Sequence record: PV805632.1
Length of the DNA: 64,000 bases
From: a phage
Strand: one strand, 5' to 3'
Shown here: piece by piece, positions 9,359-62,597 of the stretch
Position numbering within the stretch: the stretch's first letter is position 1
Layout of the letters: each line of letters begins with the position of its first letter
Notes under the pieces: model-generated
Told to the model about the DNA's origin: nothing
The model's input: the letters and a program-made list of their open reading frames with translations, nothing else
The model's database searches: none
Program-made: the position numbers and the translations under genes

Positions 9359-10462
9359 ATGAAAATCGAACTGATTTCTATCATCGCACTGGCAGTTGAC
9401 AGTCGAAACCTCACACTGTGGAAGCCTGATGGCTCCACGGTTGTATACCCTCAGAGCGACCCACGGGTTGCTCGTATTGTATCTGAAGCACAGACTAAAG
9501 GTCTGGGCACTACCCAGGATCAAATAGAAGTAAACATTGCACCAGAAGTAGAACTTCGTACTGAATACCTGGAAGCAGAGAAGAACACCAACGGATTCGT
9601 TCGTTTCTTTAAGGTAGCTAAAGCTAAACTCAAAGAGTTCTTCGAAGATGGTACAGGTGTTTCACCAGCCCGTACCGTTTCAGATATTAAGCTGGGTAAT
9701 CCTACTAAGACACTAGTGTCTAAAGCTATGGATACTTTTCTGGCTGTCCAGGCTAATGAACCAGAAGTAACGGTAGCAGATGGTTACTACGACAAACGTG
9801 ACAATCTGATGTGGGTTACCGGTTGGGATAAAGACCATAACCATCTTGCACTGGTTCGTTTTATTGACTACGTACTTTGTTGGAGTCATAAGCATACTGA
9901 TCATATTCTTGCACAGGAGTGGCCTATTGCAATTCGTGCAGTATCTGATGATGAAATGGGTGAGTTTGCTAAACAAGCCCAATACATCAAAGGTGTACAC
10001 ATTGTATTTACCAACCGTGGAGAAACACCACTGCCTTACGTGGAAGTAGCTAAAACCTCGAACCAGGATAAGCTGGCTGCTGCTTCAGAGAAACTGGCTG
10101 CATTAGGTGCTATCAGTACTGATGACACTAACTTCCATACTGATGTGAAGGAAGATGAAGTGGTTGTTGCTGTTACCAACAATGGGGTTATCCCTGGGGT
10201 TGAGAACCTGCAACGCCACCTGCGTCAGTCTGCCAAGCTGAAAGACTATAAGGGCTTTACTAAGTTCCTTGAGCGTCTGGCTCCGGTTATTAAAGACCGT
10301 CTGCACTCAGTGGAAGACCTGATGAAGTTCATGGAAACTGCTGAACTGCCTATCGCTGATGATGGCTCTATCCTGTTCCTGAAACGACTTAAGTTCAGAG
10401 GTGAAGAAATGGTAAGCGTGTATTCGTTGACTGTCACTCAGGCAACATTCGTCAGTGGGTAG
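9359..10462 (+). CDS. rIIB: rIIB-like protein, N-terminal segment (possibly a frameshifted single gene with 10543..11403)
   Basis: 367-aa ORF immediately after rIIA; the next frame is open from 10405 and the two ORFs together give about 680 aa; assignment by position and size only. Confidence 0.45.
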   Translation: MKIELISIIALAVDSRNLTLWKPDGSTVVYPQSDPRVARIVSEAQTKGLGTTQDQIEVNIAPEVELRTEYLEAEKNTNGFVRFFKVAKAKLKEFFEDGTGVSPARTVSDIKLGNPTKTLVSKAMDTFLAVQANEPEVTVADGYYDKRDNLMWVTGWDKDHNHLALVRFIDYVLCWSHKHTDHILAQEWPIAIRAVSDDEMGEFAKQAQYIKGVHIVFTNRGETPLPYVEVAKTSNQDKLAAASEKLAALGAISTDDTNFHTDVKEDEVVVAVTNNGVIPGVENLQRHLRQSAKLKDYKGFTKFLERLAPVIKDRLHSVEDLMKFMETAELPIADDGSILFLKRLKFRGEEMVSVYSLTVTQATFVSG

Positions 10463-10542
10463 GTTGTAAAGTACAGGTACGAGAAGACCTGGTAGACCCT
10501 GACCGTCGTCAGGACTGCTCTAATGGTCTGCACGTAGCATCT

Positions 10543-11403
10543 ATGAGCTATATCCGTACCTTCGGTGGTAACGTAACTATCCTTGGTAAAGTAGCACCAG
10601 AAGATGTATTTGCTGTTCCTGAGTACAACACTAATAAGATGCGTGTAGCTGCGTATCACATTATTGCTGAACTACCAGAAGAGGAACGTTGCAACGTTAA
10701 CAATGGTATCTATCTGTCTAATACAGAAGTGGGTAAGAAGTTACTTAATGATGCCATCGTTGGGAACCATAGTTCACCTACCACACTTGTTATGGTTGGT
10801 GGGCATCGTGGTACTAACCTCAAATACACCAATCTATCGTCTGGTTCTGTAGAACAATTCCGTACAGTTGCTAATAAAGAGGCACTGAATATGGAAGAGT
10901 CACTGAATGAAGCTGTAGCTGCTGAACCAGTGAAGGCTACTGACCTTAAACCTATTGTTAATAAGGCTCCTACCGTGAAAGAACAAATCCAGGAACTGAT
11001 TAAAGAGTTCCTTAACGCTGCTACTCCAGAAGATAAATTAGCTGCTGCTGATTTACTTGTGGAAATGCGAGGTAAGGCTCGTAAGCCATGGGCTGCTTTA
11101 GGTGTTGGTTCCGATGTGGTATCTAAGATTGCTGATGTACGTAGTACTCGCATTCCTGCACCAAAAGCGAAACCAGTGAAGAAAACTAAGGTTCACCGTT
11201 CGGCTACTGCTACTAAGGTAGCACCGTCTGGTAAACACGCTGATAATCTGCGTAGCATCCTGAATGATACGTCCTACTCTGACTATCAGAAAGGTCATGC
11301 TCTGCAAGACTATAAGCGTCATGCTAAGAAGTCATTCACTGCAATGGGTCTGACTGAAGAAGAAGCTAAGTTAGCTACCAAGCTGGTCAAGGCCGTTAAG
11401 TAA
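10543..11403 (+). CDS. rIIB-like protein, C-terminal segment (frame open upstream to 10405, no RBS at ATG 10543)
   Basis: 286-aa ORF; its frame continues 46 codons upstream and overlaps the end of 9359..10462. Confidence 0.4.
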   Translation: MSYIRTFGGNVTILGKVAPEDVFAVPEYNTNKMRVAAYHIIAELPEEERCNVNNGIYLSNTEVGKKLLNDAIVGNHSSPTTLVMVGGHRGTNLKYTNLSSGSVEQFRTVANKEALNMEESLNEAVAAEPVKATDLKPIVNKAPTVKEQIQELIKEFLNAATPEDKLAAADLLVEMRGKARKPWAALGVGSDVVSKIADVRSTRIPAPKAKPVKKTKVHRSATATKVAPSGKHADNLRSILNDTSYSDYQKGHALQDYKRHAKKSFTAMGLTEEEAKLATKLVKAVK

Positions 11404-17015: not shown

Positions 17016-17299
17016 TGACTAAGCTCTCCGGTGGTCTTAATAACTACTATGTAGTTTCAATTAAGAATCCCCAACGGAAAGAGCAAGAGCCATATCAAGC
17101 AGAGTGTGAGGATATTATCCAAGCACTGGGCATGACCTTCGATGAAGGTTGTGCCTTTAAAGCTCTATGGCGAAATGCTGCTGCCCGTATGGGTAATGGT
17201 AAACCTGGCAACTCTTCAGTGTACGACTCAGAGAAGATTGTGCATTATGCCAATCGAATATTGAAAAAGGCTTACAATGAAAGTAACCAACAATCATGA
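17015..17299 (+). CDS. hypothetical protein
   Basis: 94-aa ORF, overlaps the upstream stop. Confidence 0.45.
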   Translation: MTKLSGGLNNYYVVSIKNPQRKEQEPYQAECEDIIQALGMTFDEGCAFKALWRNAAARMGNGKPGNSSVYDSEKIVHYANRILKKAYNESNQQS

Positions 17300-23065: not shown

Positions 23066-23296
23066 TCTGGTAGGTGGCTCAGAAGCTGCTGCTAGGTGTG
23101 GTAGTGTTTATAGTCCTGATGCTACTACTGGTCAGGATTATAGACGTGTCGGCTCCATACATAGCTTTTATCATCACTGTCATTATCCTGTGGAAATGCA
23201 GTGGTAAACACGGTGGTGACAAGCCGCCAGAATAACAACAACCGAACCAGTGGATTGGAATACTCTCCCCAGTCCATTGGTTCAACCGAGGCTAAT

Positions 23297-28600: not shown

Positions 28601-31600
28601 GAACTTCTGCTGTGCATAGTAACGGTCAGCAGGGTTAGTACTATCTGGGTCAGTCATGAATGATTCAACAGTCAGGTTCTTAGTAACGTGTGCATAGTAT
28701 TCCTGTGCACGAGAAAGAGCAGCCGGACTAATAGCAGCTTCAGTAGCGAGTGCAGCAACAATGTTAGTAAAGAGACGCTGCTCCTGCATATTCATAGTGA
28801 AGCCATGAGCCTGAACATCACGGGTTACTTTAGTTGCGTGCTTTTTCGCATCAGAGAACTTACCTTCACGGATTACTTGCTGTACTGGTTCTGAACCAAT
28901 GTAGTTAGTAATCAGCTTATCAAATGTCTGTCCTAACTCTTCCAGACGGGTATTGTCACCATATGCTTTGTTATGGAACAAGGTAGTATCTTTGGCTACA
29001 GCAGCCGTAGGAGCCTGTCCACGCATAACTACTGAAGAGTTAAACAGTAAGCCAGAGAACATATCATCTGCATTAGCAGGTGCTTTCTTGCGACCAAATA
29101 CCAGACGTTTGATTGCTTCATATACTGACTGAACCATGGCTTTCAGTGCAGTGGTCTTCTTCTGCTTACTAATTAATTCACGGTTAGTTAAGCCCCAAGC
29201 CATGTACTCATTCAGTGCAGCAGCTTTAGCCATTGCTGGTTCAATAAAGCCGTTAGACAAGTGACCATTAATGGTATTAAGTGCATCAGCATATGCTTCA
29301 CGTACTGCCGGAGATTCATCCATAACATCCAGATTACGGAACTGGTTCATCAAGTCTTCAATATTCTGGACTGCTTCATTAGGAGTACCCTCATAGTGAG
29401 CCAGTACAGATTCAAAAGTAGAAGCATGTACTAATTCATGAACCAGAGTCTCTAGGGAAGGGGTAACTAAGTAGATGGTTTTATCATCAAAGTTAGTCCA
29501 GCCATACGCATTACCAGCTTCGGCAGCTTCAATATCTTCCGGTGCTGGACGAGTAATGTTCTTCTCAATAGCATAGGCATCCAGTTGAGCAGGAGTACCG
29601 TAAACAACTTTGTAGTCTTTAGCAGCAAGGGATTTCTGTATCTCTTTCAATACTGCTTGCTGTTCTGGAGACATCTCTTTAGCCAGCTTGGTAATAGCAG
29701 TATTAGACAATAGACGTACACCAGACTTAAGTACACGACCAACTTGTTCCATTGCTGGCACTTCTTTAACAGGTGCTTCTTTAGTAGGTACTTCTTTCAC
29801 TGGATCTGCTTTAGCAGCACGTACTGCATCACGACGCTTATTTAATTCAGCATCAAACAGTTCGTTCAGCTTAGCTACTTGCTGGTCTACAGTCAGTCCC
29901 TCAAGAGAAATTTTACCGTTGTTCACATAAGGAGCACCTACAGCAGCCATCTGGTCAACAGTGGTCTGTACCTGGTTCATTACTTTGTGGCGAATATCCA
30001 CACTTAAAGCAATGTTACGCAGGTTACGCTCAATAAGGTTAACACCTGAATTCTTAATCATATCAATCTTATACTGCCTGTCTCCCTCAACGCGACTGAT
30101 ATGAGAAAGCTGTTCAAAATCTAAAGCGGAACGGGCAATGTCATCAATTGTCTTATCTGACAACTTATCAAAGTCTACATTCTTCAAGAACTCAGAGAAG
30201 GATTCATATACAGCCTTGATAGGATTCCCCTGCCAGGAAGTGTATACAGCCTCGTTTGCTTTACGACTTGCATCAGTGATGTCACTAATACCAATGTTCA
30301 TACCATCAAAGATTTTCAGGGTATTCTTCGGAGCACCTTTCATAGTAGAAAGGGTCTGCATCATCATGCCATCACCAGTACCGATGGTCATAAATGGAAT
30401 ACCTGCAACACCTGCTTGTGAAGGAGCATAGATGCTCATTGGCACACGCATACGGTCATCTAAGTTGGTAGCCAGTACTTGGTTAGCAACGTCAGTACTC
30501 TCACTGCCAGCAAGGTAGAAAGTCTGTGAGCCAGTCTCAATCATTGGAGCCAATGGAGATAATGATTCCTGGATTTCATTCAGTTCTTTCTGTGTTAAGA
30601 AATCACCCTTCTTCCAGGTTGGGTCTTTTTCTTTTTCTGCTAGCTTAGCCTGTACTGCTTGCTGGAACATATCCTGCAATACCAGAGACTGAATCTGAGT
30701 AGCCTTCTGCAAGTTCTCAGTAGAGTACATCAGACCTTCACCAACAGTATTACGGATACCGGTACGCATTGGCTCAACGAACAAATGGAGCATGTTCTCT
30801 TGTAAGTTCTTCAGAGCATTACCGGATACGGTAAATTTCTGAGGGTCTAACTTACCAGTCAGAGCACCATCTACTTCCTTAATAAATAACTTACCTTTGC
30901 GCTTAGCTGGAATTTTACCAGTCAGTGCTTCCATAGAAGTAAGGAAGGTATCCAGCATAGCCTGAGCATCTGCCTCAGACGCAGCCTCTTTACCAAACAT
31001 TGCCATAGCCGGGGAAATGCTGGGGTCAGCAGCACGTGCTTGCAGAACGTCGCTGAAACGTTCGTAGATGGTGTCAGTAATTGCACCGACTATATTACCA
31101 GCAATACCACGTGCACCAGCACCATAGATGGTAATGGTCAGGGGGTTTTTAGCGATGCCACGTTTCAGGTCCAGAGTACCATCTTCATTCAGGTTAAAGT
31201 CTTTAATGAACAGGTCCATTAACTTCTGGAGATGATTTATCTGGTTTATAACTGGAACGTTGTTACGGTAAGTAGTACGTAACGCATTCAGTGCTTGTTG
31301 CAGACCATTGGTAGATGCTTCATACAAGTCAACATTATCGTCGATAGAACAATGTTCGTTCATCGTTTTACCAGCACGACCGAAGAACAAACCACCTTTG
31401 GCAGTATTCTTAATCCAGTCTGGGGTGAACTTACCACCAGTCATTAATACCATTGCGTTGATTGGGCCGTTGGTTACACCATCAGCTTCAACGTACAGAG
31501 GGGTAGTAAAATTAGCACGGTCATCACTGTTCAGGTAACGGGCATATTCCATCAGGGCCATGAGAGCTACGAAGGATTTGTTATCACCCAGAGAGGTTTT

Positions 31601-36985: not shown

Positions 36986-37001
36986 ATTAGTATGAAGTAT
37001 T

Positions 37002-38948
37002 TTAAGGCATTTTCACATACCCAGGTATGCCTTGGGCTTGGCGTATATACCGTATAGCACGCTCCTGGTTTTCTTTCTCAGCCTCCCGATCTACAGAAGC
37101 CTGTGATCGAAAATTACGTGGAGCCAGGTTTTGAGGGTCAGCCTGAACTTGGCCCTGGGCATTTTTAAGCATTTCAGCAGCTCTACGTACTTGTTCCTGT
37201 CGTGCAGGTAACAGTGCAGTAAGTCCAGTCTGCCCAGTAGCAATCTTATTCTGAGTATTTGTCAGTGCAGCTACAGCAGCATCATATGCAGTCTGTGCTG
37301 CCTGAATATTCTGCATAGCCTGAGCACGACCAAGGTTACGTACACTTGCTTCAAGGGGTTCACCACGTTTTAGCCCCTCAATCATTTGGTCTACCTGACG
37401 GTCATTAAGTCGCAAGCCATTACCGGCTTCTGGGGTTTGTCCTATGGTTAGATAATCAATAAGACGTCCTGTATTACTTTCCGGTACGTTAGTCATTGCA
37501 CGTTGAACAACAACACCTGCCATAGCCGGGGATACATTAGCACGCTGAGCAATATCATTGATACGAGCCACAACCCATTGTTTATCTGCCCCCTTAAAGT
37601 CACCCTCTAGTAATCTGTTAGCAACTTCCCCAACAGTAGAAGTGTCATTTAAGGCAGGTAAATAATCGGGGGCAATACTTCCAGCATTGTCCTCCATAGA
37701 ACGAGTACCAATCATACCGGTAGCCAGAGTAGATACTGCCTGATTGCCCTGAGCCATAGCAAGTGGGTCAGCCCCTACTTCAGCTTGAGCAATAACAGGT
37801 TTCATCTCTTCCCATGTCTTATCCTTATAAGCACCTGGAGTAGCGTTAGGCAGAGCAGCCCAGGTATCTTTAAGGTTACCGTTCTTACGAGCCTCGAAGA
37901 TAGCCCTACCAATCTTATCCTGGTTCTCAGGAGAAAGAGGCTGGCTTTGCCAATCTGAACCAAGAACTTTGGGAGCGAAGTCTAGCAGAGTAGCTTGGTT
38001 AATCTGGAATGCACCAACAGGAGAAGCACCCTGCTTCGTCTTCATACTATCCTGGTGTTTAATTACATCACCAATACTCATTTGAGTAATAGGGGTAGAT
38101 GTACCAGCAAACTGGTAAGTAACATCATAAGGGGAACCCTGACGAGTACCAGCAGTGCCTGGTGCAGACGTAGCACCAACATTGTTACCGTAAACACCTG
38201 GATATGCTCGTGCAAGCATTTCCTGCAAACGTGCCTGTGCAACCGGAGACAGATTCTTACTATAGGATTCTGCCAGAATACGGGCATCGTCAGCATTCTC
38301 AGCACCTCTAGTAATCAGTGCCATTACACCCGTAGCAGCCTGACTATCAGCATCATTACGTTGAGCAACACCCAAATCAAAACGGTTCTGTGCCTGATTA
38401 ATAGCCTGACCACTTTGGCCTTGAAGACGGCTCAGCATGTCCAATTGCTGGTCAGCAGGGAGTGCAGACAATGCATCGCGGGTCTGACTTAATGCAGCAT
38501 TAATACGGTTCTGGTCTCCAGACTGATAAGCCTCAGACAGTAAACGAATAGCTGGGGAAGCATTATCTAATGCAGAGTTAGTATCTTGTAACCGTCCAAG
38601 GTTATAAGAATTGTAGTCATTGGTTCCCTGCTGACCTTGTTGAGTCAGCAATGTACCTGCTCGCTCATCCAGGTTTTGGAGGGTACGCTGGTTTATCAAT
38701 GAACGGTCAACCCCCTGAAATAATGCACCAGATGCCAAAGCATTACGGTACTCAGTAGGGTCTTGGTACTGCATAGCATTCATCATGACGGCATTGCCAG
38801 CCTCCTGCTTGGCAGCGTTCTGGAAATTACCCAGTGCATCACTTAAGCCGGAGGTGGCGTTACCAATCATGCTACCAAATGTGCGAATGCTGTCACCAAC
38901 TCCGGAGAAGTTAGGTGCATCAACATTTCTCCACGTTATCTGAGCCAT
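37002..38948 (-). CDS. virion-associated protein (Q/A/N-rich)
   Basis: 648-aa ORF immediately upstream of the giant ORF; positional call. Confidence 0.45.
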   Translation of the reverse strand: MAQITWRNVDAPNFSGVGDSIRTFGSMIGNATSGLSDALGNFQNAAKQEAGNAVMMNAMQYQDPTEYRNALASGALFQGVDRSLINQRTLQNLDERAGTLLTQQGQQGTNDYNSYNLGRLQDTNSALDNASPAIRLLSEAYQSGDQNRINAALSQTRDALSALPADQQLDMLSRLQGQSGQAINQAQNRFDLGVAQRNDADSQAATGVMALITRGAENADDARILAESYSKNLSPVAQARLQEMLARAYPGVYGNNVGATSAPGTAGTRQGSPYDVTYQFAGTSTPITQMSIGDVIKHQDSMKTKQGASPVGAFQINQATLLDFAPKVLGSDWQSQPLSPENQDKIGRAIFEARKNGNLKDTWAALPNATPGAYKDKTWEEMKPVIAQAEVGADPLAMAQGNQAVSTLATGMIGTRSMEDNAGSIAPDYLPALNDTSTVGEVANRLLEGDFKGADKQWVVARINDIAQRANVSPAMAGVVVQRAMTNVPESNTGRLIDYLTIGQTPEAGNGLRLNDRQVDQMIEGLKRGEPLEASVRNLGRAQAMQNIQAAQTAYDAAVAALTNTQNKIATGQTGLTALLPARQEQVRRAAEMLKNAQGQVQADPQNLAPRNFRSQASVDREAEKENQERAIRYIRQAQGIPGYVKMP

Positions 38949-38960
38949 GATGGTTTCCTA

Positions 38961-39443
38961 TTAACGGGTTAGTTTATTAGCTGCAATGTAAGCGTCAGCC
39001 GAAGACTGGTCACGGTTCTCTGCTGTAGCACGACTACGAGCACGGTCTTCCAGTGCAGTGTTATAAGACTTAATCTGATTATTCAGGTTAGTGTTAGTAA
39101 CGCTCTTAGCAAAGTTCAACTGGTTTTTGGCTAACTTGTTAGCCTGGAAACCGCCATAGATATTGGCTAAGGAACCAAGTGCATCCAGACCTAGTTGGAA
39201 GGTAGGAATGTTCATGCCCAATTGGTCAGTCAAGCCTGAATCGTTACCAGAACCAAACAAAGAACTATCCAAACTACCATTTAAAAAATCCATGCCAACT
39301 GTTTGTCCGGGCCGATAATTCATTGCCGGAGTACTAAAGTTTTGCTTCTGGTTGTTACCAGATAACCAGGACAAAGCCCCTGGCTGAAGGGTTTGGTTGC
39401 CTGTTAAGAATGACAAATCCATGGGGATTCTCCTGTTAAACAA
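38961..39443 (-). CDS. hypothetical virion protein
   Basis: 160-aa ORF in the structural operon. Confidence 0.45.
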   Translation of the reverse strand: MFNRRIPMDLSFLTGNQTLQPGALSWLSGNNQKQNFSTPAMNYRPGQTVGMDFLNGSLDSSLFGSGNDSGLTDQLGMNIPTFQLGLDALGSLANIYGGFQANKLAKNQLNFAKSVTNTNLNNQIKSYNTALEDRARSRATAENRDQSSADAYIAANKLTR

Positions 39444-41571
39444 GGTCTGTATTAAGAGTCATATCAGAGTAGCTGCCAATCATGTTTAAAGACATGTCAG
39501 CTATATCCGAACCAGTCATAAGAGTACGTGAGAGGAAAGAATCCAACGACTCCATTGACACAAATTGCATAGGGTCAATTACACCCTGCCCAGCAGTACC
39601 AAACATTTCTTCATACTGCTTATTGATTGCCATCATATCAGTATTGTACTGCTGCATTACATTCTCTGCTTTCTGAATAGTAGCAGCCGTAGATGCATTA
39701 ATATACTGGCTAATACCATTACCTACTGAACTGGTAAGCTGCATAATGTTCTGAGCATTCATCATTTCACCGGCTAAGGTAGATAAGGATGTACCAGTAG
39801 ACATAGCAGTACCAACGTTCATAGCCACCATTGAAGCAATAGCAGCAATGATAAAACCTAGCTTATCACCAAACAGAGAAGTGGATACTTTAGTGACAAT
39901 AGATATCATAATCATTGCAGCAATGGCGTTTGCTACAGCACCTACTATTACAGCAGCTAATCCAACAAAACCTAGCGATGCACCAACTGCACCATAAGCC
40001 CCAAGAATACCTGCACCACCAGCACTACCAGCACCCATAGTAAATACGGATATAACGACAGCAACTACAACAACCACAATCTTAAAGGCAGAGGACTGAT
40101 ACCACTTTTTCTTAACCTTTTTATATGAGTTCATTACTAAGTAAGAGCAGGCAGTAGATAACTGAGTGCTACGAACTAGTGACATTGAACGATAGATGTT
40201 GGTGTGCAGGGGAATAATGAATCCACTCTCTTCTGCATCACCCATTGCTTCAGCAACATCAATATTTACTGACTTATTTTTATATACCTTGTTGCTATGA
40301 TGAAGGCCCAATACCCTAAGTTTACGGTAGGTATTATTACCATCCTGCCAAAGCAACTCATATTCTTGCATAGTATAAAACGTAGGGGTAACTTCCAGCT
40401 TTTTGCTAGCACCAGCACGCATGTTCTTACGGGTAAGGGTTATATCCCCTGCATATCTGGCTCGAAGTTGTCCTTGTTTAGCACCAGCCCATGCTTCACC
40501 GGAATGGGTAGTTTCAAATACGTAGTTCCAACTAATAGTCATATCATACTTATAATGCTTACTACTATGCACCCTAAACTCCCGCTTAGGTATAACAGGG
40601 TATTCTGGCAGAGGTGGAGGTGTTCCAACAATTTGACCTTCCTGCCTGTTCCACCATTCCTCATATGCATCAACTGCATCATTTGCTGCCTGATAACCTG
40701 CAATCACTGCTTCCAGTGTAGGGTAGGTTGGATCAGGTGGAAATGCTTCAGTAGCCATCTGAAAGAAACGGTAGATGTATTCCTTAGCAGTATCTTCTGG
40801 AGTATTAAGAGATACACCGAATGTGCCATAGATGTATTGAATATCGCCTATGTCATCATTCTTCTTAAGCTCAGTCACTACTTTATCTAGCTTACCACCA
40901 GTAGCTTTATAGAGTGCCTTCTTACAGTGGGGGTAGATTGTGTCATTCTCTACCCATTGCTTATCATTCCTGATTGGAATAAATGGATAGAATCGGTTAT
41001 CAGTAGCCTCAGTTTCAAACAGTGAATCGAGTGTAGCGTTACCTGAGTTCTTCTTATAGATAAGCATCTTAGGTGTACCAACAGCAGTCATCTCAGTGTC
41101 AGTACGAGTAGTCTGGGATGAGTACTTACGAACCAGTGTCTCTGTGGTCGTGGTGATTGTATCTGTGCGAGTAACACCACCACCTAAATTAACTACATTA
41201 GTGGTTACAGTAGTACTGGATTGAACCTCACCGAACTTTCTATGAGTCATTACCCTATCAGATACAACTACAGTTACATCATCAGGCTTCTCAGTGAATC
41301 CTCTACGGTAAACCTTAACGTAAGAGTTCCAGTTATCCACACTTGGTACAGTAACAGTACTGTCTTCATATGGTCTACCATCAGAGTAAACAGAATGAAT
41401 CTGTATAGTCTTAGTAAGATTGGTTGTGTTAGCCGTCGTATTACTTGAGATGGTAGTCCATAACAGAGTAGACGGTAAGTCATTTTCGCTGTTATAGACA
41501 GTAGTCGGACCTACTACCGGTGGATTGGTAGCCGGGGACTTATAGAACGTGTAATCAGCATAGAGATACAA
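39436..41571 (-). CDS. virion structural protein, C-terminal part (likely one gene with 41514..42086)
   Basis: 711-aa ORF with TTG start and no RBS; its frame is open upstream to 41643 and overlaps the preceding ORF. Confidence 0.5.
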   Translation of the reverse strand: MYLYADYTFYKSPATNPPVVGPTTVYNSENDLPSTLLWTTISSNTTANTTNLTKTIQIHSVYSDGRPYEDSTVTVPSVDNWNSYVKVYRRGFTEKPDDVTVVVSDRVMTHRKFGEVQSSTTVTTNVVNLGGGVTRTDTITTTTETLVRKYSSQTTRTDTEMTAVGTPKMLIYKKNSGNATLDSLFETEATDNRFYPFIPIRNDKQWVENDTIYPHCKKALYKATGGKLDKVVTELKKNDDIGDIQYIYGTFGVSLNTPEDTAKEYIYRFFQMATEAFPPDPTYPTLEAVIAGYQAANDAVDAYEEWWNRQEGQIVGTPPPLPEYPVIPKREFRVHSSKHYKYDMTISWNYVFETTHSGEAWAGAKQGQLRARYAGDITLTRKNMRAGASKKLEVTPTFYTMQEYELLWQDGNNTYRKLRVLGLHHSNKVYKNKSVNIDVAEAMGDAEESGFIIPLHTNIYRSMSLVRSTQLSTACSYLVMNSYKKVKKKWYQSSAFKIVVVVVAVVISVFTMGAGSAGGAGILGAYGAVGASLGFVGLAAVIVGAVANAIAAMIMISIVTKVSTSLFGDKLGFIIAAIASMVAMNVGTAMSTGTSLSTLAGEMMNAQNIMQLTSSVGNGISQYINASTAATIQKAENVMQQYNTDMMAINKQYEEMFGTAGQGVIDPMQFVSMESLDSFLSRTLMTGSDIADMSLNMIGSYSDMTLNTDLV

Positions 41572-42086
41572 AGCACCTGGTTCAAAGTTAGTAGGTGTGA
41601 ATGTAATGGGGGAACTCCATCTAAGGAGGTCATAGTGATTACATTAGTATCTTCATCAATGTCTATGTCGAATCGTTCCATGATTCGACTTGGGGCATTC
41701 TCATAAAGATACTGATCACACCATTGCTCAAAGTCAGCAAAGCCAATCTCTGCTGCCTGAACATAGACAGATTCTCCAGCAGGTGGGGTAATTTGATCCT
41801 CTATAACAGTAGGGTCAATCTTAGCCAGTACACCTAACGAAGAACCTGCCATACCAACTTCTGAATCATAGTGATTCTTACTCCAGCTAGAAAACAGTCG
41901 CATACGTATACCAGGCCCCTTCAGATAACTATCAGAGATAGTGTCTGCCATAGTGAATCCTGTATCAGCAACAATCTTACCGATGACTACAGTCTTCATA
42001 TAGTTTGGACGCTTGTGTATATCCCCTGCCATGTTATAGACAGAGGATGCTACGTATACTTTGGTCTTACTACTGAATAAGCCCAT
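41514..42086 (-). CDS. virion structural protein, N-terminal part (possible frameshift at GGGGG 41607-41611)
   Basis: 190-aa ORF overlapping the 711-aa ORF by 58 nt in another frame. Confidence 0.45.
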   Translation of the reverse strand: MGLFSSKTKVYVASSVYNMAGDIHKRPNYMKTVVIGKIVADTGFTMADTISDSYLKGPGIRMRLFSSWSKNHYDSEVGMAGSSLGVLAKIDPTVIEDQITPPAGESVYVQAAEIGFADFEQWCDQYLYENAPSRIMERFDIDIDEDTNVITMTSLDGVPPLHSHLLTLNQVLCISMLITRSISPRLPIHR

Positions 42087-42087
42087 A

Positions 42088-42930
42088 TTAATTCAGCCCG
42101 TTGTTAATCTTCAGCTTGGACAAAATGGTATCAATACTTGCGTTGGTGAAACCATTAGGTGGGTTCAAGCCTTCATCAATAGTCTTCTGTGTAATCCATG
42201 CATCAGTAAACAGCTTAGATGCTTTAACTTCTGCATCACGTTGGTAAGAAGTAATCTGTTGAGAGTACAACTCTTTCTGCTTACCTACGGAACCCCTAAC
42301 GGCTGCACCGTCTGTACGAGTATCCAATGTCTGTGCACGTTGTGCCTCAGTCTGCTCAGTAATCAGTTTAAGCTGTTGAGGTAACATCTGGTTAGCATTA
42401 AACAATGCAGCACAGTATGTTTCAGACTCAGTAGCAATCTTCATCTTAGTGAGGGCATATTCACTTTTAGCAGACAGTGCCTGAATCTTAGCCAGCACAT
42501 ACTGAGCTTTAGAAGTAGCCAATGTAACACGAGCAGTAACAGCCTGAATCTGTGCCATAGCAGCAGCCCAGTATGCTTGGTCACGACCAAGTAAGAACTG
42601 AACAGCATTACTCATGCATGATTCCATCATGGCAATATAGGCTTTGGTATATTCACCACCAGTAATACGGTTAGCTTTAAACTCAGCTTTAAGATGGTTG
42701 TGTGCAGATTCCATTAAAGCATCAAACGTACCGCTACCACCCACTTCACGGGTAGTAAGTGATTCATTAGTTACTTTAGTAATAGCATCAAAGATTGGGG
42801 AATCATCTCCACCAGGGATATCCCATTCAGGACCAGACATATCAATGTCAGGGAGGGTAAAGTCATCACCCTTTGTTAACTCTTCTAGGAGTCGGTTAGC
42901 TTCTACCTCAGCAGAACAAGACATAATCAT
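42088..42930 (-). CDS. hypothetical virion protein
   Basis: 280-aa ORF in the structural operon. Confidence 0.45.
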
Positions 42931-44928: not shown

Positions 44929-46161
44929 TTAAAGACTACCCGGTACTGGGAGTTTAGCGAAATCTTCATCACTCATGGCGAGTGGGTTTACAATAGGTGT
45001 TGCTTTACGTGTAGCAGCCCGATTAAGGGAAGCTGCTTTAGCTTGCTCACTGTTAGCCAGAGTCTGCTTAGGTTGTGCTACTCGCACTACCGGCTGAACC
45101 ACTGGTTTAACTGCTTGTACCGGTTCTGGCTTAGCTACTCGGTTAAATGCCCCCTGCTGTGCAAGGAGGTTACCGACGTGGTTATAAGCCTGAATGAACG
45201 GAGTACCTACCGGAATCTGGCCTAACATCTGAAGACGGTTCACTTCGTTTGCAATGGTGTCATAAATACCATTCTCACGTTGTTCGTGAATAGTCTGGAG
45301 TAGGCCACGATTCTGGTAAAGAGCTTCTTTACTGGCAGCATCCCATGTCGAGCCGATAACACCTAATGTAGCTTGTCCTTCTTGAGTAGACTTTAAGTCG
45401 TCAATTTCGGTTGCAAAATCTGCTTCGGTGTCGGTAACACGGTGATTGCCACCCTGGTAGTTAATTTCCTCATCTGGGTTAAAGTCCAGAGGATCTGTAC
45501 CAGAGTCTTTGAGCAACTTCTTAATGGCTTCTGGATTCTTTTTATCCAGGTCAATCAGGAAGGAAAGTTTATCCTCATCCATTAAACCGTTGTTCTGTAA
45601 CATCAGCATTACCTTACGGTAAGGCTTCAGTTCTTGCATCTTACGAGTATAGTTAGCACCCATCTGCATCAGGCTAATGGCCTCCTCCGGTGAACGGGGA
45701 GTAATCACTTTGCCGTTAGCTTTAAAAGGAGCCATCAACTTCTCGTAACCTTCCTTATAGTTGAAGTCAGCAGGCAGACCTTCAGACTGTTTGCCTTCTT
45801 CTTTCTGTTCCTGGCCTAGTTCAGTAGTAGAAGGTTCAGCTTTAGTAATCGGCTCACCGTTACTATCAACTTCTGTGTCAACAACTTTATCAACAACTTT
45901 ATCATCAACTTTATCAGAAGTTAAAGAATTTGCTGAATCTTCTTCATCAGGTTCGGCTTCAGGGGGGGTTTCTTCGGTTGGTAGGTCTTCAACAGCAGGA
46001 GTGTCAACTTCTTCTTCAGGAGTCTGTACGCCGTTGGTTTCTGGGTTGTTCTGAGTGGAAGTATCTTCCTCAGCAATAATTGCTGGGGCTTCCATATTCA
46101 GAATCTCATCATCCGACATTGCGAGAATGTCGGAAGCTGTGGTTGCAGCTTCCGTAGTCAT
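44929..46161 (-). CDS. putative scaffolding protein (acidic, low-complexity N-terminus)
   Basis: 410-aa ORF directly upstream of the capsid gene; E/D/T-rich. Confidence 0.4.
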   Translation of the reverse strand: MTTEAATTASDILAMSDDEILNMEAPAIIAEEDTSTQNNPETNGVQTPEEEVDTPAVEDLPTEETPPEAEPDEEDSANSLTSDKVDDKVVDKVVDTEVDSNGEPITKAEPSTTELGQEQKEEGKQSEGLPADFNYKEGYEKLMAPFKANGKVITPRSPEEAISLMQMGANYTRKMQELKPYRKVMLMLQNNGLMDEDKLSFLIDLDKKNPEAIKKLLKDSGTDPLDFNPDEEINYQGGNHRVTDTEADFATEIDDLKSTQEGQATLGVIGSTWDAASKEALYQNRGLLQTIHEQRENGIYDTIANEVNRLQMLGQIPVGTPFIQAYNHVGNLLAQQGAFNRVAKPEPVQAVKPVVQPVVRVAQPKQTLANSEQAKAASLNRAATRKATPIVNPLAMSDEDFAKLPVPGSL

Positions 46162-46538: not shown

Positions 46539-48809
46539 TTACAGGTTCATGCCAAGAGCCGATGCTGGGTCTTGGCTAGGGTCATAGTATTGGGAACTAA
46601 GTGAATAAGCTGGGTCTTGCTGAGCAGCTAAATCCCGTTCTGGTATAGAGTTCACGTTAGTCAAAGTATTATATCCAACAGCTGCAGATATGTTGGGGGT
46701 AGTTTCCCCTTCTTTAATAGGTGTTGTCAATGCCTTAGTTATCTGAAGGTTCTGGTTTCCTTGGGATTGTGCTTTTTGTTTTTCCATATCACGAGCATGT
46801 TTAGTACCAGATTCCTGTTCCAGATAATCCAGGTCTTTAAGGTCACCACTGGAAGCAGCCTCTTTAGCCTTAGCCATATTGAGTGCAATCTTACTTTGTA
46901 ACTCTTCATTCTCAAGCTGTGCTTTCTGAATTGCCAATTGCTTAAGCTGTTCTTCCATAGGGTCTGGCTGTGGTTGCCAGGTACGTAACTCATGAGCCAG
47001 GTCGGGCATACGTTTAAGTTCTGCAATCTTAGCTACGAGAGATAACGTAATAGTTTGGTCAACCGTATTACCCAATGTTTGAACCATGAAGCTCAAGTCC
47101 TGGGATTTCTGGTTATCAATTTCAGCAGTGTTGATATCAACCTCAATATCGAAGTTACCTTTAAGGTCTTCACGGTTAATCTCTACATACTGCTCGTTAG
47201 TAATACGTACTACTTCTTTCTCAGATAAGAACACAGCATTCATTGCACAAATCTTAGTACCAATGTCTGCCATGCCCTTAGCTAATCGGCGAAGGATTGC
47301 CATCTCACGTTTGGATGCTGCATCAAGTGCACCACGAATACCGGCAGCCACTTCCCCGTATGCTGAACCAGTTACACCACCAGAGAATGCTTTAACACCA
47401 GTTAATGATTCAGCTTCCTGGTTTTGCATCTGGGTCATTATTATTGCCGACTGAGGTAACTCAGGGAACTTATGTTCCATAATGGCCTGACTAGGATTAC
47501 CCTGCATTGGGTTGTATTCGTAGTCTTGCCCATCGTCATATCGACGACGGTTTAGTGTATCCAACATCCCTTTAGGATAACCACGTTGACCGTTTGCACT
47601 TCGACCTAACAGGTCAATCATCCCACGCATAGTTGCACCAAGAATTGCTTGGTTATCCCCTAACAGTTCAGCATCAGCTTCACCGAAGAGTTCGCGTTTA
47701 CGGGGCATGTAAGGAACAACTACTAAAGGTAATTTACCGTCAGGGAATGGGTTCCTCTCCATACGAATAAGAGTAGAACCAATCCAGGTAGCAACAATAG
47801 GTTCCAGAGAACCATCATCATTGATGTCGTAAAATCCCCAGTATTCGTAGGCAACAACTTTCTTACGAAGTGCATCCTTAAACTGAAAGTCACTTGGAGT
47901 CTTACTTTCATGGTCTGGGTCGGTCATAGGGCTAGAACTTTCCCAGTCAATCTTATCTAAATTGTGATAACGATCTTTGTTCTTCATGAGGTCTGCTTTG
48001 CATGTCTCAAAGGAGATAACTGCATACAGAGCCTTATCCAAATCACCGTTACAGCTTGGGTCAATAACTACGTTATTAGGGTTAAGCATTTCAACGGTAG
48101 GTCTGTTAACTAGTGCCTTCTCTACTTCTACTTCAGTAACTCCAGTCTGGATTGCATAGGTAGCTTCCCCAGTTTCATTAAAGTAGTTAACAGCTTCCTT
48201 AATATCTTCCGGCATTGTCTCATCGTACTCACGAGGATTCTCTGCCTGAAGCTGTAAAGCCTGTTGAAGAACATCTGCTTGTTCCTGGTTCTCGATTGGA
48301 TATAACTGGAAGACTGGTGTTTCTGTTTTAATCTTAACAGTCTTACGTTCCCAACCAATACGAGCAATACCAGTACCGTCATCTACAACACTGTGTACGT
48401 AATCATCCACCAGTTTTACTTTATTAAGCTGGGTACGAAATTGGTAGTTAAGAACTAATTCATTCTGTCGTGCAGCTAACTCATCCTCAAAAGTAACCGG
48501 AGTTACTTTAAAGAGCTTATTAGATGAGAGGAATGGCTCAGACAATGGAGCATATCGCCACTCTGCCTGACGGCGAACCAGTCTGGGTTGGACTTGTGAG
48601 CGTCCCTTAACCTTTGGGGGTTTAGCCTTACCTTTAACTTCCATCAGGTCATTCCACTCACGAATCTGAGCCATAATTGCATCGTGAGCAGGTTTAGCCG
48701 ATTCCAAATCACCCTTCAGTAATTGGATACTTGGTTCCTTCTTCCAGTCCGTTAGCTTCTCTGATTGAGCTGGGTCTGGTAAAGGCTTAAAAGTGTCTTG
48801 GTGTTCCAT
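46539..48809 (-). CDS. putative portal protein
   Basis: 756 aa; size and position (upstream of scaffold/capsid) match the N4-type portal; not motif-verified. Confidence 0.6.
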
Positions 48810-61206: not shown

Positions 61207-61220
61207 CCCCCCCCCCCCCC
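61207..61220. repeat. homopolymeric poly-C tract (14 nt)
   Basis: CCCCCCCCCCCCCC read directly from the sequence. Confidence 0.9.
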
Positions 61221-62492: not shown

Positions 62493-62597
62493 AACTCAGC
62501 GATAAACTAAGTTTAACTTTTAGGGGCTTTTCGACGAAGAGTCACTAAAACTTAAACGTAAACAGAAGCAGATAACTTAGAGTAAGGAGTAATCAAG

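Follow-up and report, generated by a model that had tools for sequence, protein, structure and literature searches.

A well-described counterpart of the gene considered here is gp53 of phage N4, which was detected in virions by LC-MS and placed by cryo-EM as a single-copy tail plug (PMC13434306). This plug has a globular core and a beta-feather outside the tube, and its hydrophobic knot (residues 29-56 and 670-716) closes the dodecameric tail tube of gp54 like a cork (PMC13434306). It is gripped by domains D9-D10 of one subunit of the receptor-binding gp65 sheath, with a 12:6:1 symmetry mismatch, and receptor binding has been proposed to displace the plug, which frees gp52, gp51 and the virion RNA polymerase gp50 (PMC13434306).

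A second kind of system that has to be considered is the programmed -1 frameshift site as in dnaX and the tail-chaperone genes, because such sites also involve a pair of overlapping frames in which the downstream member is shifted by -1. In E. coli dnaX, the sequence A_AAA_AAG is preceded by an SD and followed by a hairpin, and the tail-chaperone genes of tailed phages use G/GT sites.

The window analysed here, a stretch of 64,000 nt from record PV805632.1, belongs to a G7C-like coliphage (Gamaleyavirus, N4-like Schitoviridae). Using positions 39400-42100 as megablast query, 59 phage records were matched, all of them Gamaleyavirus-type N4-like coliphages, and the best match was vB_EcoP_G7C with 99.0% identity over the full query (2701 nt vs 2702 nt in G7C). 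Over the full length of the window, identity to G7C is ~96-97% and the gene order is collinear.

Two open reading frames at the gp53 locus

In G7C, gp53 is a single CDS of 2652 nt between gp54 and gp52 (883 aa, YP_004782183.1; NC_015933 50016-52667), and Bas96 and PhAPEC7 each have one annotated gp53 CDS of 884 aa. The window carries the gene at the same place with 99.0% DNA identity to G7C, that is, between gp54 and gp52 in the late operon as in the N4 tail-plug family (Table 1). The gp54 stop overlaps the gp53 start region (TAATATG), the gp52 start equivalent to that of G7C is 39422, and tblastn of the G7C proteins aligned gp54 to 42924..42091, gp53 to 42086..39439 and gp52 to 39422..38964.

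As written, the window has no single continuous polypeptide of ~880 aa at this locus; such a frame appears after one G is restored at 41615. Instead, there are two ORFs with an overlap of 58 nt (41514-41571), the 711-aa ORF being in the -1 frame relative to the 190-aa ORF. The first-pass annotation had described exactly this pair, and both the ORF coordinates with their overlap in different frames and the upstream extension of the open 711-aa frame were borne out. It had also proposed that a frameshift divides a single virion structural gene, which agrees with the single CDS of G7C and with tblastn of G7C gp53, in which aa 1-161 align at 42086..41604 in one frame, while aa 155-883 follow in the adjacent frame at 41625..39439. 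On the profile level, the 190-aa ORF covers positions 1-147 of the 850 positions of PHROG 2220 (E = 4e-57) and the 711-aa ORF positions 161-847 (E = 1.5e-264), and intact G7C gp53 covers phrog_2220 positions 1-847. None of the three proteins searched, gp53 included, was assigned to a Pfam family. Because the two ORFs match one protein family in successive segments, the pair is not a chance pattern; judged by homology, the two ORFs are the N- and C-terminal parts of one known gene, gp53. The 190-aa ORF is made up of ~157 aa of the native gp53 N-terminus, followed by ~33 out-of-frame residues and a premature TAG.

Table 1. Positions, within the window, of the gp53 locus, the frame-broken genes and the sites of absent HNH genes
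Feature	Position	Strand	Remarks and basis
gp54, upstream neighbour (tail tube in N4)	42088..42930	-	role from PMC13434306
gp53 (tail-plug) gene, whole once base restored	39436..42086	-	883 aa + stop; G7C synteny, tblastn
190-aa ORF, ATG start	41514..42086	-	ORF list
711-aa ORF, TTG start	39436..41571	-	ORF list
Open -1 frame with remainder of gp53	39436..41643	-	homology from 41625; tblastn, PHROG 2220
Lesion: single G where G7C, Bas96 and PhAPEC7 have GG	41615	-	GGAGGTT -> GGAGTT; alignment
C5 run, coding strand (G5 on + strand)	41608..41612	-	five bases in intact G7C too
gp52, downstream neighbour (ejection protein in N4)	38961..39422	-	role from PMC13434306
rIIB (gp34), split; ORF parts 9359..10408 and 10408..11400	lesion 10407	+	GAAGAAAATGG -> GAAGAAATGG
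gp36, nucleoside triphosphate pyrophosphohydrolase family, split	lesion 11928	+	TCCAAATGG -> TCCAATGG vs G7C
HNH-gene absence sites	1867-1875, 17205-17277, 23262-23268, 62512-62524		comparison with G7C

Full-length homology to N4 gp53 (PHROG 2220; PDB 9YFT) is found via both ORFs and the G7C ortholog, as residues 1-882 of G7C gp53 align with N4 Gp53 in PDB 9YFT chain FA (885 aa, E = 0); the alignment with the "N4 gp53-like protein" of 9ZE4 is weak. From homology and synteny we infer that gp53 of the window does the same job as the N4 tail plug. It would cork the gp54 tube and, on receptor binding, would be displaced, whereupon the ejection proteins and DNA would leave.

Since the two ORFs span nearly the whole family profile, one could also imagine that gp53 is truly split into two functional genes with products assembling in trans. 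However, the TTG of the 711-aa ORF is preceded only by AGGTG, 3 nt away, whereas the other late genes in the window have ATG starts behind AGGA/GGAG-type sites, and independent initiation of this ORF is therefore unlikely. (The TTG start had already been noted in the first-pass annotation, together with the lack of an RBS, for which this AGGTG is the only candidate seen.) Moreover, the first ORF ends with its out-of-frame residues, no relative is split at ~codon 157, and the N- and C-terminal segments of the N4 protein are knotted in one chain (PMC13434306). The corresponding knot segments fall in both ORFs, which argues for one polypeptide. Two separate functional genes are exceedingly improbable in our view.

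The missing G at 41615

The break was mapped by aligning the window with G7C, Bas96 and PhAPEC7. Relative to G7C, the alignment contains 25 substitutions and one indel, and the missing G at 41615 is the sole indel in gp53: the coding strand changes from GGAGGTTCCCCC in the intact gene to GGAGTTCCCCC in the window (window GATGGA-GTTCCCCCATT vs G7C GATGGAGGTTCCCCCATT), and the GG of G7C at this position gives an uninterrupted frame. With one G inserted, the frame is open for 883 aa with 6 aa differences from G7C gp53, close to the fusion product of about 900 aa that had been predicted from the two ORFs. The nucleotide differences that remain after this repair are found on both sides of the break, 18 in synonymous and 6 in non-synonymous codons, and because they are mostly synonymous there is no sign of decay or relaxed constraint on either side.

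The lesion, which throws the frame by -1 at ~157 codons, lies 3 nt upstream of the C5 run. In the first-pass annotation the frameshift had been attributed to this run, seen as G5 on the other strand. The run is indeed present in the overlap, one base away from the 41607-41611 given there, but the frameshift was misplaced by 3 nt, as the only indel is that of the GG doublet. A lesion within the run itself is ruled out: the run is equally long in intact G7C, and 41615 is where the indel falls. Bas96 and PhAPEC7 read TCTACC at the position of the run, without any homopolymer. Since the event lies 3 nt outside the run, little is left of the argument from a homopolymer at the junction.

The loss of one G from the GG doublet at 41615 shifts gp53 into the -1 frame in the window, and most likely the deposited sequence lacks this base through an error in base calling or assembly. 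The phage itself would then most likely make the normal 883-aa gp53. On the sequence evidence we consider it likely that gp53 is interrupted by such an artefact and that the real gene is intact. This reading is the best one because there are three one-directional homopolymer under-calls in 64 kb, one of them in a single-copy virion protein. After mapping ~60 G7C genes on the window, exactly three turned out to be frame-broken, namely gp53, gp34 (rIIB) and gp36, and all three breaks are isolated, uncompensated 1-nt deletions in short homopolymers, each unique to the window: i) GG->G in gp53, ii) AAAA->AAA in rIIB and iii) AAA->AA in gp36. All remaining coding indels relative to G7C either have a length divisible by three or form pairs that compensate each other within divergent stretches. 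At the rIIB site, the extra A is found in G7C, KKP 3715 and Bas96, and PhAPEC7 is of equal length; at the gp36 site G7C is the sole usable witness, the other relatives being too divergent there.

Two points weaken this assignment. The "homopolymer" in GG->G is very short compared with those of classical homopolymer errors, which counts against an artefact, and rIIB and gp36 say less about sequence quality than an essential gene would, as their real inactivation could be tolerated. Of the two explanations put forward in the first-pass annotation, a sequencing indel remains the best reading, albeit at a dinucleotide, whereas slippage lacks support, with no heptamer, no downstream structure and no conservation. 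As rIIB and gp36 are broken likewise, short homopolymers in this sequence call for caution.

Relatives and possible recoding or rescue

Using G7C gp53 as tblastn query, we found the gene in 269 phage records across Schitoviridae. Close records were defined as phage records at >=90% identity to G7C gp53 (n = 56), and in 51 of these 56 gp53 is in one piece by tblastn. The five exceptions represent three phages: Escherichia phages Bp4 and vB_EcoS_Uz-1 (Uz-1) have a common 1-nt deletion at ~codon 368, and Shigella phage pSb-1 has one at ~codon 604, in each case in a short C or G run. As in the window, gp53 of these phages is divided into two ORFs through a 1-nt deletion, but their breaks lie at other codons than the ~157 of the window. 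A recurrent break site in the gp53 family can be ruled out on this basis, and because the breaks are found at differing codons, they represent independent, sporadic events and no conserved trait of the gene. Judging from these sequences, such sporadic, position-independent splits match errors or random mutations and not a recoding signal. In Moo19, the two tblastn pieces are both inside one annotated CDS. Orthologs in the form of two separate genes, which according to the first-pass annotation would speak against a split gene, were not encountered; the orthologs are single genes. Pattern scans of IMG/VR and the JGI metagenomes did not find the deletion allele in other contigs, and the sole match was G7C itself with the intact allele. 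Nor are the exact 190-aa protein and the exact gp51 of the window on record elsewhere.

Some peculiarities of the deposited records were also seen at this locus. Uz-1 (OP312987.1) and Bp4 (NC_024142.2) have the same record length of 72583 and identical CDS coordinates at the gp53 locus; their sequences differ despite the common gp53 frameshift, and Bp4 may have served as the reference for assembling or annotating Uz-1. In Klebsiella phage vB_Kpl_K57alpha1.2 (OY979416.1 14069-17373), an ATPase, a Hoc-like decoration protein, an HNH protein and others are annotated over an intact gp53, on the opposite strand and flagged pseudo, and the annotation appears to be out of register with the sequence there; this record was therefore left aside as a source of annotation.

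Alternatively, the deletion could be a real recent mutation, carried by a defective genome in the population or by a leaky mutant, with the 190-aa fragment as truncated product and full-length plug made rarely, e.g. by a spontaneous -1 slip in the C5 run. The deletion is after all present in the sequence as given, and two other lineages have a split gp53 in their deposited records. If the ribosome slipped by -1 at C_CCA (41610), the reading frame would be regained 2 codons past the lesion and the product would be 883 aa long with only GS->VP changed; with one copy needed per virion (PMC13434306), a little plug could suffice. On the other hand, differences from G7C after the break are mostly synonymous, so any mutation would be very young. 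The same kind of lesion in two other genes points to sequence quality, there is neither a stimulatory element nor a canonical heptamer, and the allele is unique. In addition, Uz-1 lists rIIB twice, and the other records with a split gp53 also carry further broken genes. Overall, a real mutation seems rather unlikely to us, even though it is the more serious competitor of the sequence artefact. If the deletion were real, it would give a modest insight into the smallest amount of a single-copy virion protein with which a phage can manage.

A narrower version holds that a viable phage with the real deletion obtains its plug from low-level spontaneous -1 slippage on the C_CCA motif held by the C5 run and would thus be a naturally occurring leaky frameshift mutant in an essential virion protein present as a single copy. 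The slip of tRNA-Pro from CCA to CCC is predicted to give ...SLDGVPPITF... instead of ...SLDGGSPITF..., with SLDGVPPITFTPTNFEPGALY as the predicted junction peptide of the rescue. Nothing indicates selection for this rescue, and we regard a leaky mutant of this kind as very improbable.

Finally, the two frames share 58 nt, the downstream part being in the -1 frame, and the shared region has a C5 run, which could suggest an evolved programmed -1 frameshift, or transcriptional slippage on the C5 run, giving a short and a long gp53. Scanning 41643-41514 revealed no X_XXY_YYZ slippery heptamer in the 0 frame but only the weak tetramers C_CCA (41610) and T_TTG (41586), and the 77 nt downstream showed no stimulatory structure (-8.7 kcal/mol vs a shuffle mean of -9.2, z = 0.22). 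RNA polymerases slip appreciably only on runs far longer than C5, and known slippage runs are usually A or T. The long homopolymer expected for transcriptional slippage is thus missing, and G7C, 99% identical, has the same C5 run and is yet in frame, whereas Bas96 and PhAPEC7 do without the run. Furthermore, the frame is continuous in N4 as well as in most of the close records, and the two-frame arrangement at ~codon 157 occurs in none of the 56, with G7C, Bas96 and PhAPEC7 in frame there. Having neither heptamer nor structure nor a conserved arrangement, a programmed -1 frameshift was rejected, and an evolved event of either kind can be given only a minute probability.

Further differences from G7C and comparison with known systems

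Besides the frame-broken genes, several other differences from G7C were observed in the window. A C14 run at 61207-61220 corresponds to C7 in G7C (~25-32, inside the annotated terminal repeat). The window passes through the collapsed terminal repeat, with the right end of G7C joined to its left end, and the assembly is therefore circularly permuted; the doubled C run may reflect true variation in length close to the end of the genome, or else an artefact of the junction or of the homopolymer. Of the G7C genes, four that encode HNH homing endonucleases (gp24.1, gp41.1, gp47.1 and gp2.1) are cleanly absent (Table 1). At the gp41.1 site, gp41 has 94 aa in the window vs 156 aa in G7C, so that the endonuclease insertion accompanies a different gp41 C-terminus.

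Within the structural and ejection genes, gp51 (an ejection protein in N4) is 86% identical to its G7C counterpart, compared with 98-100% for its neighbours. The divergence lies mostly in the C-terminal ~250 codons (37000-37760, - strand) with many compensated indels, and this pattern suggests that the 3' part of gp51 is a mosaic or recombinant segment. In-frame changes relative to G7C comprise a 15-nt tandem duplication in the gp50 vRNAP gene (29776-29790), a 12-nt tandem duplication in gp57 (45878-45889, TCAACAACTTTA) and, in the gp59 portal gene (47096-47101), the loss of 15 nt from a short repeat.

With respect to annotation, the two ORFs at the gp53 locus should be joined into one, or else marked as belonging to a tail-plug gene with a frameshift; listing the pair as a recoding site or as two hypothetical proteins should be avoided. 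Unlike the dnaX and tail-chaperone sites, the overlap in the window combines its two frames with no slippery heptamer, no stimulator and no conservation. G7C-type phages carry the tailspikes gp63.1/gp66, so the partner that holds the plug in them may differ from that of N4. The phage analysed here is a Gamaleyavirus and N4 an Enquatrovirus; both have the same gene order gp54-gp53-gp52-gp51-gp50. The split gp53 is a known gene, the N4-type tail plug, with a 1-nt deletion.
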